A DNA stretch of 45,266 nucleotides, from positions 1 to 45,266 of the IMG/VR virus record IMGVR_UViG_2718217897_000001; one strand, 5' to 3'. Numbering within the stretch: the first letter of the stretch is position 1; every line of letters begins with the position of its first letter. The DNA comes from a virus. Lineage: Duplodnaviria; Heunggongvirae; Uroviricota; Caudoviricetes. Below are positions 40,162-41,761 of the stretch, piece by piece. Both the position numbers and the translations under genes were made by a program. Below the pieces are notes generated by a model. It was not told where the DNA came from and searched no databases. It saw only the letters and a program-made list of their open reading frames with translations.

Positions 40162-40716
40162 ATGCTTATTGGCTATGTACGCGTATCAACAAATGACCAG
40201 AACACCGATCTACAACGTAATGCGTTGAACTGTGCAGGATGTGAGCTGATTTTTGAAGACAAGATAAGCGGTACAAAGTCCGACAGACCAGGACTGAAAA
40301 AGCTGCTCAGGACATTATCGGCAGGTGACACGCTGGTGGTCTGGAAACTGGACCGACTGGGACGCAGTATGCGGCATCTTGTCGTGCTGGTGGAGGAGTT
40401 GCGCGAACGAGGCATCAACTTTCGTAGTCTGACGGATTCAATTGATACCAGTACCCCAATGGGGCGCTTTTTCTTTCATGTGATGGGTGCCCTGGCTGAA
40501 ATGGAGCGTGAACTGATTGTTGAACGAACAAAAGCTGGACTGGAAGCAGCTCGCGCACAGGGACGAATTGGTGGACGTCGCCCCAAACTTACACCAGAAC
40601 AATGGGAGCAGGCCGGACGATTAATTGCATCAGGCGTTCCTCGCCAGAAGGTGGCGATCATCTATGATGTTGGTATATCGACACTGTATAAGAAGTTTCC
40701 GGTCGGAGATAAATGA
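40162..40716 (+). CDS. pin: Pin/Gin/Hin-family serine DNA invertase
   Basis: MLIGYVRVSTNDQ N-terminus with catalytic Ser. 184 aa from the ATG at 40162. C-terminal HTH. Confidence 0.9.
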   Translation: MLIGYVRVSTNDQNTDLQRNALNCAGCELIFEDKISGTKSDRPGLKKLLRTLSAGDTLVVWKLDRLGRSMRHLVVLVEELRERGINFRSLTDSIDTSTPMGRFFFHVMGALAEMERELIVERTKAGLEAARAQGRIGGRRPKLTPEQWEQAGRLIASGVPRQKVAIIYDVGISTLYKKFPVGDK

Positions 40717-40736
40717 AACCGTAGCACGTCGTATGC
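40715..40736. repeat. direct repeat copy 1 flanking the GIY-YIG gene
   Basis: gaaaccgtagcacgtcgtatgc, compared with gaaaaccgtaggcacgtagtatgc at 41738-41761. Confidence 0.5.
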
Positions 40737-40776
40737 AAGAAGATCGTGCTGCGGTTTATGCTTATCACTTAAAGAC

Positions 40777-41550
40777 TCAAAAATTAGGTGAGTAACGGAC
40801 CGGGGACATAGCTCCTTTTTTTCTTAATTCATCTGGTATTTTTTTTCCAAGATAAAGATTTGCTATTTCAGGTGGGGCTTCTCGACCTTCAAAACCATAG
40901 CGAGAACTTTGTGTTGCCTCAAAGTCCGGATCCTCGTCCCAGTATTTCATCGTAGGGAAATTTTCACGTGTTGATTTGAGCCATTTATCAGCAATGAAAA
41001 CCCCTCGAACGATCCCCCTCACAGTAGCAAGAATGACTTCTGCTTGGCTGGCGCGAGAGACATTAATGCGCCAGCTAAATCGAACCGCATCATAAAGCTC
41101 TGAATCCTTTGCACTTCTGTTAACGGAAATCATTAATGCTTTATGATGAAATGTTATGGTTTCGGGTTGATATGTTGCTATCAACTCTTTGACATGCGCG
41201 GCGCCGAATTCATTGCTGCCAGCACCATTCATGATATTCGTTAACCCAGGGTAGGCATCAATAAGTGCTGCTTCAACTTCGTACGCCGTCTTTTCATCAG
41301 TCATTCCGTGTCGATGGATGACATGGATAACCTCAAGTCCTGCTAACCTTATTTCTCTAATTTGCTTTAGCTTGTTGCTCAGTAACTCGTCATCATCAGT
41401 CGCTGCCACTTCACCGCGCATATGGGCAAATACGCGGTTACCTTTGCCTTTCCCTACATAGAAGGTGCTTCCGTCCCTCGGATCAATCAATCGGTATACA
41501 TACCAGCCAAGGTGTTCAATTACTCCAGAAGGAAACTCAGTAATATCCAT
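40777..41550 (-). CDS. GIY-YIG nuclease-domain protein with an uncharacterised C-terminal domain
   Basis: N-terminal GIY-YIG-like motifs (GWYVYRL ... [11 protein letters not shown], then conserved R and E). ATG at 41550; the track ORF begins with TTG at 41601. Occupies the position held by mcrA in e14. Confidence 0.55.
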
Positions 41551-41737
41551 TTTGCAATATCTATGAATTATTTGTGAGACGTATATTAATGAACATTGCA
41601 AGGACTCACAACCAGTAGTGTTGAGAAAACCATCGGGGAAATGAGGCTAAGCCTTTGAATTTATATAGTACAAAAAAGATACTTTTCCTCATAATGTGAA
41701 TTAATTTTATGTTTCGTTTGATGATTGGACCGGTCTC

Positions 41738-41761
41738 GAAAACCGTAGGCACGTAGTATGC
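41738..41761. repeat. direct repeat copy 2 flanking the GIY-YIG gene
   Basis: See copy 1; about 21 of 24 positions shared. Confidence 0.5.

Follow-up and report, generated by a model that had tools for sequence, protein, structure and literature searches.

Partial copies of a conserved late-operon-end element flank the PD-T4-3-type defence gene of a prophage integrated at ssrA

We analyzed a window of 45,266 nt, the whole of IMG/VR virus record IMGVR_UViG_2718217897_000001 (Caudoviricetes), which holds a prophage of ~40.7 kb. Each end of the prophage is marked by an exact copy of the last 23 nt of ssrA, the gene for transfer-messenger RNA (tmRNA). Near the right end of this prophage, next to the DNA invertase gene pin, an earlier note on the same DNA had drawn attention to imperfect direct repeats of ~22 bp on either side of a gene with a GIY-YIG domain, identified below by sequence match as the phage-defence gene PD-T4-3/CMoRE, and had read them as the mark of a cassette that had entered a conserved sequence downstream of pin. 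Our results reveal that both repeats are partial (5′) copies of one conserved element of ~100 nt, made up of a hairpin and a tail of ~55 nt, which we name here the late-operon-end element (LOE), and that they are boundaries of mosaic modules. We consider it likely that the PD-T4-3 module came from related phages that integrate at the tRNA-Ser gene serU, and that phage-phage recombination joined it in front of the LOE of a recipient phage.

The first repeat copy (GAAACCGTAGCACGTCGTATGC) overlaps the TGA stop codon of pin (40714-40716), and the second (GAAAACCGTAGGCACGTAGTATGC) lies beyond the GIY-YIG open reading frame (ORF), from which it is separated by the upstream region of that gene (Table 1). 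The two copies, at the positions and with the sequences first described, are distinguished by a single substitution and two indels of one base each. When the 100 nt that follow pin were aligned locally, with gaps allowed, to the 310 nt of intergenic DNA upstream of the GIY-YIG gene, this pair scored 33, with 20/22 identities and one 1-nt gap, and none of 2000 shuffled flank pairs reached that value (mean 17.1, sd 2.5, maximum 32), so that the similarity lies outside chance expectation on formal alignment. Neither a gapless repeat finder nor a mismatch-only pattern search of the window recovered the pair, because the copies differ by indels.

Comparative breakpoints provide the strongest evidence that the repeat similarity exceeds chance. 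Positions 40100-42000 of the window were compared by megablast with 5426 complete Escherichia coli genomes, 2470 of which yielded matches, and the end points of these matches cluster at the repeats. Matches of the K-12 e14 type stop at 40718, those of relatives that are "empty" at this site stop at ~40741, and many others stop at 41745-41748 or at 41761; some matches start at 40715-40716, without pin, and some genomes match over 40714-41748 only. Conservation of the repeats at cassette boundaries, the lack of which the earlier note had named as a refutation, is seen in relatives.

Both boundaries lead to the same element. The LOE lies directly after the stop codon of the last late gene, adjoining the region of the attachment (att) site and the integrase gene int. 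An empty-site relative (L003, E. coli strain CX04 plasmid unnamed3; L numbers designate fetched loci) has pin, then GAAACCGTAGCACGTCGTATGCAAGAACGTGCCACGGCTGGTTGGCGAACTTTCGATAGTGCGAGTATTGAATGATTTCC..., then dinI and int. We found the LOE in 198 phage records, including HK629, HK97, HK633, phi80, phiP27 and many Shiga toxin (Stx) phages, with hits in VT1-Sakai and in Stx1/Stx2 phages at yecE placed beside dinI/int. It follows the stf stop codon immediately in HK633, where part of it was annotated as attP by the authors of the record (JQ086377), in phiP27 it directly succeeds the final ORF ahead of the genome end, and in the b region of the lambda-like phage HK629 it has ea47 and ea31 as its neighbours. 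A scan of IMG/VR with the 3′ part of the LOE returned 80 loci, in which the element is preceded by pin, by tfa, by a membrane-protein gene, by the ykgJ-flanking chromosome or by att cores. The proposal of a conserved pin-downstream sequence thus holds as to conservation and fails as to pin, since the LOE also follows stf, tfa and other genes in phages that lack pin and has a chromosomal copy. As a side observation, three pin-less phage contigs (L127 at ~3600-3680, L140 and L167) carry a remnant of ~20 nt of the pin 3′ end (GTTTCGGGAGATAAATGA) right before the LOE, which indicates that the pin end and the LOE have travelled together by recombination.

The element is present in 5385 of the 5426 complete E. 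coli genomes, with one copy between ykgJ and ecpE. In a K-12-type chromosome this copy is 84.9% identical to a complete LOE over 106 nt and is followed by a dinI-like remnant; in one such locus (L093, 2500-2700) the sequence after the LOE resembles, on the opposite strand, the 3′ end of dinI from a phage. This gives the chromosomal 'attB' the look of a fixed relic of a prophage end, a resemblance that bears on the published view that phages took this sequence from the chromosome.

The hairpin of the LOE has a stem of 13-15 bp and a loop of ~13 nt with an invariant GTATGC; in copy 1 it is followed by TTTATGCTT. Its arms exist as alleles that change in compensation (CCGCCGTCTG/CGGGCGGCGG, CAGCGGTACG/CTTACCGCTG, GCCGCAGTA.../...TACTGCGGC), and double, compensatory changes occur in 6/8 predicted hairpin pairs, a conservative count since the MAFFT alignment misplaces a bulged base. 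Of this element the window retains ~43 nt in copy 1 and ~20 nt in copy 2. Copy 1 is part of a hairpin-only LOE that lacks the 3′ ~55 nt in every locus examined, and the imperfect hairpin that had been noticed there is real: 40716-40757 folds with -22.5 kcal/mol (z = -3.85) on the plus strand and with -17.3 kcal/mol (z = -3.15) on the minus strand. The stem of this hairpin is stable, its loop measures ~13 nt, and its tails read UUUAUGCUU on the plus strand and UUUCAUUUAUC on the minus strand. It probably also serves as a putative shared transcript end for the convergent genes pin and PD-T4-3.

The same hairpin appears in Rfam as the 3′ hairpin (GGAAACCGcaGCaCGuCuuAAGCaaGAaCGuGCugCG) of the consensus of CssrB (RF02799, Shigella small RNA B), which ends there. 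The window copy and other LOE copies score 22-32 bits against this family, low values because only the terminal hairpin is shared, and membership was rejected on the gathering score of 76. In three loci (L106 3020-3065, L122 6979-7024, L147 6441-6486) a hairpin-only LOE together with the upstream sequence AACCCCAAATCGTAAAGG and a T-run matches the 3′ end of CssrB, which seems to be a transcript ending at a prophage LOE hairpin.

The gene between the repeats was assigned to PD-T4-3/CMoRE. The PADLOC model for PD-T4-3 (PDLC04031) matches residues 1-256 of its 257-residue product (E = 2.4e-140), and structures 9U75 (CMoRE of E. coli O157:H7) and 9U7U of the PDB match it with E = 3.7e-172 and E = 1.1e-150. 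The motif described for CMoRE as 'GIYxY-YIG', with Y17, Y19 and Y31 (PMC12923530), is present as G15-W-Y17-V-Y19-R...F30-Y31-V-G33, with numbering that begins at the ATG at 41550. As a restriction endonuclease of type IV, PD-T4-3/CMoRE degrades DNA containing 5-hydroxymethylcytosine (5hmC) or glucosyl-5hmC, sensing the modification through its C-terminal domain, and protects against T-even phages (PMC12923530; bioRxiv 10.1101/2024.12.20.629700). The matches identify the window protein as a predicted enzyme of this kind, in keeping with the earlier proposal of a defence gene.

PD-T4-3 is the only long ORF between the repeats, and it does not travel alone. In the 72 IMG/VR loci that contained the upstream search anchor, as well as in L001, L004 and L005, the upstream region of the gene is constant as far as ...TTTATGTTTCGTTTGATGAT. 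This region always accompanies PD-T4-3, and in relatives it equals the phage arm of the serU attachment site. A scan for consensus promoters called none for PD-T4-3 in 41551-41726. Outside this setting, PD-T4-3 homologues with 82-86% identity in eight genomes of six other enterobacterial genera (Yersinia, Providencia, Citrobacter, Buttiauxella, Raoultella and Klebsiella) have neither the LOE nor the tRNA fossil described below at their flanks, which indicates that these flanks are not the ends of a self-mobile unit; a GTDB scan of PD-T4-3 homologues revealed no further junction types. That scan also showed that homologues with 54-60% full-length identity are common in metagenome-assembled genomes of Planctomycetota, Acidobacteriota, Actinomycetota and Chloroflexota, some of them with two copies each. 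One fetched locus (L038) has two identical PD-T4-3 copies (4001-4837 and 7012-7848), each with its LOE hairpin, ~3 kb apart and separated by a tail-fibre invertible segment and pin, an arrangement that suggests tandem or nested prophage remnants.

The origin of the right boundary is recorded in relatives integrated at serU. In L001 (strain RMDEC332) and L004 (O157:H7 strain 380-94) PD-T4-3 is the last gene of the prophage, and its upstream region leads on to the 3′ part of tRNA-Ser(CGA), which reads ...TTGATGATTGGACCGGTCTCGAAAACCGGAGTAGGGG...CTCTCTCCGCCA, and then into the chromosome, which in L001 carries yodB/zinT. The intact tRNA-Ser stands at the opposite prophage end, with a phage-derived arm after its CCA. 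In these serU prophages PD-T4-3 therefore directly adjoins attP/attR. In the window the upstream region is followed by only 19 nt of the tRNA-Ser sequence (GGACCGGTCTCGAAAACCG), identical at 19/19 positions and continuous with the rest of the tRNA in the relatives, after which the sequence changes to that of an LOE, whose 5′ arm and loop read TAGGCACGTAGTATGC. We refer to these 19 nt as the serU att fossil. In L005 (strain E275a) the fossil switches instead to a complete LOE with the downstream sequence of an empty site, after which come a different restriction gene and an integrase gene. The joint between fossil and LOE sits at bases common to both, GAAA(A)CCG.

Copy 2 lacks the 3′ arm and the 3′ ~55 nt of the LOE. 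After the loop GTATGC the window continues with GTTAATTTATGAGCAAACTACTTGTCT, for which a short-word BLAST search against a small database gave a match of 27/32 (E = 0.022) to the sequence that follows the LOE in phiP27 (...TTTATGC followed directly by GTAAAATTATGAACAAATTACCTGTCT). This match lends moderate support to a truncation of copy 2 by an internal deletion of ~75-85 nt between TATGC repeats. Aligning the tail of copy 2 with both phiP27 and L005 gave no information on the deletion. The truncated copy and its downstream sequence (41738-41797) can fold into a new hairpin (-23.3 kcal/mol, z = -4.1), long and imperfect and with TTTTT after it, a short way upstream of the EcoRII-type methyltransferase gene.

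A census of the junctions in IMG/VR covered 79 loci with a 99-100% identical PD-T4-3 gene, in 78 of which the left boundary was readable and in 72 the right. The left boundary is the hairpin followed by TTTAWKCTT in all 78 loci; further left stands the pin stop codon in ~55, a tfa-type stop codon in ~15 and a degenerate ssrA att remnant in ~7. All 72 right boundaries read ...GGTCTC(G/A)AAA, after which three types can be told apart: type A continues with the rest of tRNA-Ser (~25 loci), type B with a complete LOE (~24 loci, two allele groups) and type C with the truncated form seen in the window (~23 loci), and there is one B/C hybrid. Probes of 91 nt across these junctions, with type B represented by subtype B1 only, found type A in 438, type B in at least 111 (subtype B1) and type C in 234 complete E. 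coli genomes. PD-T4-3 is in this sense a discrete module, as had been suggested, with fixed ends and several flanking contexts.

Across the 72 loci the alleles of copy 1 and copy 2 assort independently, nearly all combinations being seen, and a test for concerted evolution detected no co-variation between the two copies. Independent left and right alleles mean that the repeats are not a duplication from one insertion; the complete copy 2 of ~100 nt in relatives and the 19-nt att fossil between cassette and copy 2 likewise speak against such a duplication. The pair also differs from a target-site duplication in that its copies are not identical and that PD-T4-3 is the only long ORF inside, and transposition was rejected on these grounds and on the independent assortment of alleles.

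The slot itself is variable in content. A single LOE follows pin in the empty sites of L003, where the order is pin, LOE, dinI and int, and of L009, L010, L101 and L136; in L010 an unrelated 215-aa gene stands after pin. In the e14 prophage of K-12, homology to the window ends 2 nt after the pin stop codon and no LOE follows pin. A hidden Markov model of the hairpin, applied to the fetched loci, located two or three direct LOE copies in 43 of them, usually in the order hairpin-only copy, cargo, complete LOE. The cargo in between may be a SAM-dependent methyltransferase gene with a tfa 3′ fragment, a gene for a ClpP-like SDH-type protease, or an IrrE/HTH/Bro-N module. The right LOE of the protease cassette begins aGTCTCGAAAAACCGCAGG, the type B fossil-LOE allele, and shows the same TCTCGAAAAACCGCAGG joint. 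In L002, L018, L022 and L080 the EcoRII system has the truncated copy 2 on one side and, on the other, an LOE with the 23-nt ssrA core in front of it, this LOE being complete in L002 and L018; in L135 an LOE, one gene and another LOE lie beside the chromosomal ykgJ. Both a site with a single repeat copy and different genes between the same repeats, each of which had been put forward as a check on the idea of an exchangeable slot for defence genes, are thus on record, and empty, alternative and multi-cassette states of that slot exist.

A second att site shows the same arrangement. In L116, L144, L164, L170, L018, L002 (8150-8260) and L045 (1097-1160) the phage arm of the ssrA site (GTCCAATCATGAT) and the 23-nt ssrA core are fused to a complete LOE, ...GAGTTGAA being joined to ACCGCAG. 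This ssrA core-LOE fusion has the same architecture as the serU fossil-LOE fusion, built on a different att site.

The likely history outlined at the beginning can be spelled out as follows. The module would consist of a hairpin-only LOE (copy 1), the PD-T4-3 gene and its upstream region, and its source would be serU-integrating relatives in which PD-T4-3 is the last gene before attP/attR, a reading suggested by the fossil and by frequency. The module would have been transplanted with 19 nt of the tRNA-Ser att core, copy 2 being the LOE of the recipient phage and the joint falling at GAAA(A)CCG, with the left crossover presumably anywhere in the homologous late/pin region. In the lineage of the window the recipient LOE would then have lost its 3′ arm and tail, probably by deletion between the TATGC repeats, with an EcoRII-type restriction-modification cassette now lying beyond copy 2, beside the attR in ssrA. 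The census suggests that LOE copies now act as portable homology or att sequences, with cassettes gained, lost and swapped among lambdoid prophages. As to the fossil-LOE joint, microhomology-mediated illegitimate recombination is the simplest reading, and integrase action also fits.

Several observations weigh against this history or against parts of it. No intermediate or reciprocal product of the transplantation was found: a chimeric probe for the product to be expected of exchange by an integrase or by Pin, the pin stop codon joined to the 3′ part of tRNA-Ser (GATAAATGAA followed by ACCGGAGTAGGGGCAACTC), had hits in 0/5426 E. coli genomes. (The ssrA counterpart of this reciprocal junction would read X-GTTGAA followed by CCCGTGTCTGAAAAATATT.) The att fossil and the frequency of the forms, and no phylogenetic tree, underlie the view that the serU arrangement is ancestral, and the model of a deletion in copy 2 draws on the single 27/32 match at E = 0.022. 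The equation of the LOE with a published att sequence, taken up below, was made by matching the text description in the paper only. The matching changes of the hairpin arms could also stem from a palindrome to which a protein binds instead of from a folded structure, and a consensus terminator scan did not call the copy-1 hairpin, the loop of which exceeds 8 nt.

The joint could alternatively be the work of an integrase. A serU phage carrying PD-T4-3 by its attP would have integrated into the 5′ end of the LOE of a resident prophage, used as a secondary attB, and homologous recombination in the late/pin region would then have deleted the duplicated body, leaving pin, the hairpin, PD-T4-3, the phage arm with the core up to the anticodon loop, and the LOE. 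We regard this route as unlikely, although attractive. The joint falls 4 nt past the anticodon loop, so that the full stem-loop CCGGT-CTCGAAA-ACCGt is retained, and tRNA-targeting integrases of this class exchange strands at such a position of the anticodon arm. A second, independent core, the 23-nt one of ssrA, meets the LOE at the identical nucleotide, its own sequence breaking off just past the T-loop (L116, L018, L002, L045), and passages of PMC8112680 document prophage-in-prophage integration at an LOE-type element for other integrases. Yet the reciprocal junction that this route predicts is the one absent from the 5426 complete genomes, the putative overlap regions agree at only 2-3/7 bases, and the microhomology of 6-8 nt, GAA(A)CCG, explains the joints without an integrase. 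Moreover, the LOE is defined by an intact hairpin, so joints elsewhere in the element would escape detection.

Because two independent core-LOE fusions, in the serU anticodon arm and in the ssrA T arm, fall at the same LOE nucleotide, a broader proposal may be made, which we hold to be rather unlikely: the base of the LOE hairpin, between GAA and ACCG, would be a recurrent secondary target of tRNA- and tmRNA-specific tyrosine integrases, mimicking the transition from loop to stem of an anticodon arm or T arm. If this were true, each event would put incoming att-proximal cargo and half an att core in front of a resident LOE, the duplicated body of the phage would afterwards be lost through homologous recombination, and repeats of the process would stack defence cassettes from phages of differing integration specificity into arrays punctuated by LOE copies.

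A different possibility, which we consider improbable, is that the repeats are the attL and attR of an element that was integrated in the LOE by a ykgJ/ecpE-type integrase and has since decayed to PD-T4-3. Lambda-like phages do integrate into an LOE-type att sequence with the formation of direct repeats, according to passages of PMC8112680, and the LOE-gene-LOE order beside ykgJ in L135 is what a decayed insert should look like. Against it, an identity block of ~96 bp predicts two complete copies while copy 1 is consistently short of its 3′ ~55 nt, the serU att fossil stands between cassette and copy 2, and 438 genomes have the left hairpin only together with a serU attR.

GIY-YIG domains occur in homing endonucleases, and filled and empty alleles with sharp boundaries exist here, as would follow if the enzyme cut the pin-downstream sequence and repair copied its gene in. 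Such homing, which the earlier note had named in a general form as one option, is very improbable. The PDB match identifies an enzyme of the kind that cleaves 5hmC- and glucosyl-5hmC-containing DNA by way of a C-terminal domain that senses the modification (PMC12923530), slots of this LOE-bounded kind also house unrelated genes, on the right the cassette ends in an att fossil, and the 82-86% identical homologues of the six other genera lack both flanks. The candidate of a homing endonuclease gene was rejected on these two counts, the enzyme being modification-dependent and the flanks not intrinsic to it.

Hardly more credible is recombination by Pin at quasi-pix sites, with GAAA(A)CC of the repeats as a crossover half-site. 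A pix site was taken to comprise 26 bp with two inverted 12-bp half-sites like TTCTCnnAAACC. The left half of copy 2, which is the tRNA-Ser(CGA) anticodon arm (GTCTCGAAAACC, 41735-41746), agrees at 11/12 positions with the left half of the pix site of this prophage (CTCTCGAAAACC, 38255-38280), and both copies share the would-be central dinucleotide GT. Compared with the pix consensus, copy 1 scores 6/12 in its left half and 3/12 in its right and copy 2 scores 9/12 and 5/12, whereas the real pix sites reach 18 and 20 of 24; the repeats were rejected as serine-invertase crossover sites on this half-site match. Furthermore, phages without pin have an LOE with the same start after stf, tfa and other genes, and the tRNA-Ser identity of the fossil fully explains the 11/12 match. 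The inverted sites on which invertases of the Pin family act lie in cis, and deletion or fusion between molecules is disfavoured by these enzymes. The likeness of anticodon arm and pix half-site, which makes the att fossil a good Pin half-site by sequence, is probably a coincidence.

Chance similarity without biological meaning merits practically no belief: short two-copy repeats are common and the gapless finder did not flag the pair, but no shuffle attains the observed score, both copies align with an element found in thousands of genomes, and the mosaic breakpoints coincide with them. Integron-like cassettes were also set aside, though no search for an intI-type gene was made, the cargo being antisense to the late operon with apparent upstream regions of its own and the LOE lacking the attC R-box consensus.

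The wider setting of the module is that of a prophage end rich in accessory genes (Table 1). After the tail genes come the invertible tail-fibre segment, pin, the GIY-YIG gene, the EcoRII pair and the attR in ssrA, and GC content, at 54-59% in the tail genes, drops to 38-46% across this cargo region. Directly adjoining attL on the left there is a second integrative element, forming a tandem island at ssrA, with a P4-type integrase gene (2726-4036), a gene for a large serine recombinase (887-2443) and a ParB-like gene (1-897).

Table 1. Coordinates of the features discussed, as positions in the 45,266-nt window.
Feature	Position	Strand or orientation	Basis or remark
attL core, 23-nt ssrA 3′ end	4122-4144		identical to attR copy
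ssrA-type integrase of the prophage	5008-6180		
pix sites of invertible tail-fibre segment	38255 and 40082		
pin, pinE-type serine DNA invertase, last late-region gene	40162-40716	+	Pfam Resolvase + HTH_7; RefSeq pinE on identical region
Repeat copy 1, 5′ arm and loop of hairpin-only LOE	40715-40736	+	aligns with LOE start of other phages
LOE hairpin, left boundary of PD-T4-3 module	40716-40757	between convergent pin and PD-T4-3	predicted fold
PD-T4-3/CMoRE gene, 257 aa, GIY-YIG	40777-41550	-	PADLOC, PDB, Pfam LEM-3_GIY-YIG
PD-T4-3 upstream region, presumed promoter	41551-41726	-	constant in relatives
serU attP-core fossil, anticodon stem-loop of tRNA-Ser(CGA), GGACCGGTCTCGAAAACCG	41727-41745	+	
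Repeat copy 2: first 8 nt common with tRNA fossil, then LOE 5′ arm and loop to GTATGC	41738-41761	+	
Post-LOE sequence of phiP27-like phages, joined to LOE loop	41757-41788	+	27/32 identity
EcoRII-type C5-cytosine methyltransferase, second cargo cassette, gene 1	41954-43387	+	Pfam DNA_methylase + DNA_meth_N; PADLOC MTase_II; RefSeq coordinates
EcoRII-type restriction endonuclease, second cargo cassette, gene 2	43422-44630	-	Pfam EcoRII-N + EcoRII-C; PADLOC REase_II
attR core, 23-nt ssrA 3′ end	44865-44887	+	two exact copies in window
tmRNA gene (ssrA)	44865-45227	-	

Taken as a whole, the arrangement is an ordinary but well-resolved mosaic junction, with no new kind of mobile element or mechanism, and its components (PD-T4-3/CMoRE, a prophage-borne att sequence and att-proximal cargo) are already known. 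What the analysis offers is an account at the nucleotide level of how the anti-T4 gene PD-T4-3/CMoRE moves among E. coli prophages, together with a practical landmark, the LOE, for cargo and defence genes in lambdoid prophages.

The closest known counterpart of the LOE is attB-in-PP_2, described in passages of Nakamura et al. (2021, PLoS Pathog, PMC8112680) as a 96-bp att sequence of lambda-like prophages that is 81-84% identical to the region between ykgJ and ecpE, occurs in Sp15 and in Stx phages, and serves lambda-like phages as an integration site. Agreement with this description in locus, length, identity and carrier phages makes it almost certain, as far as the text description goes, that the two are the same. 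Both show homology with the ykgJ-ecpE region at ~81-85%, belong to the same length class and take up a position at the cargo end by exchangeable loci, and both are carried by Sp15/VT1-Sakai, by Stx phages at yecE and by phages at ydfJ and ssrA. The complete copies of the LOE found in relatives, with 84.9% identity to the chromosome over 106 nt, agree with the homologous stretch of ~96-125 bp and ~81-84% that is expected of this att sequence. In those passages attB-in-PP_2 is an integration target tied to type III effector loci, whereas here partial and complete LOE copies bracket defence cassettes in a Mu-tailed, pin-bearing prophage, which widens the picture of an "attB in prophage" from effector loci to defence loci. 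Unlike attB-in-PP_2, the two window copies are truncated, one to the hairpin and the other to the 5′ arm and loop, and are probably inactive as att sites. The hairpin, its covariation and the fusions to tRNA-Ser and ssrA cores are not mentioned in the passages of PMC8112680.

I-TevI and the Seg/Mob enzymes of T-even phages share with PD-T4-3 the GIY-YIG domain, a free-standing gene and variable presence at a site; PD-T4-3 differs from them as a type IV enzyme with a 5hmC-sensing domain and flanks that are not intrinsic to it. Lambdoid morons, effector loci and the pin-mcrA region of e14 offer a second parallel, as low-GC, independently transcribed genes of variable presence between late operon and att, and PD-T4-3 resembles such att-proximal cargo in its place between late operon and att, its presence or absence among relatives and its low GC content. 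In e14 the sequence after pin is mcrA, which we take to encode another type IV modification-dependent enzyme. Unlike morons and the e14 locus, the module described here is bounded to the nucleotide, by an LOE hairpin on one side and by an att-core fossil and an LOE on the other. Finally, comparative genomics of HK620 and other lambdoid phages has described conserved boundary or linker sequences between modules that promote homologous exchange. Like these, the LOE is short, non-coding and common to unrelated flanks, with breakpoints in or beside it; unlike them, it is longer, forms a covarying hairpin, has a chromosomal homologue and doubles as an att sequence.

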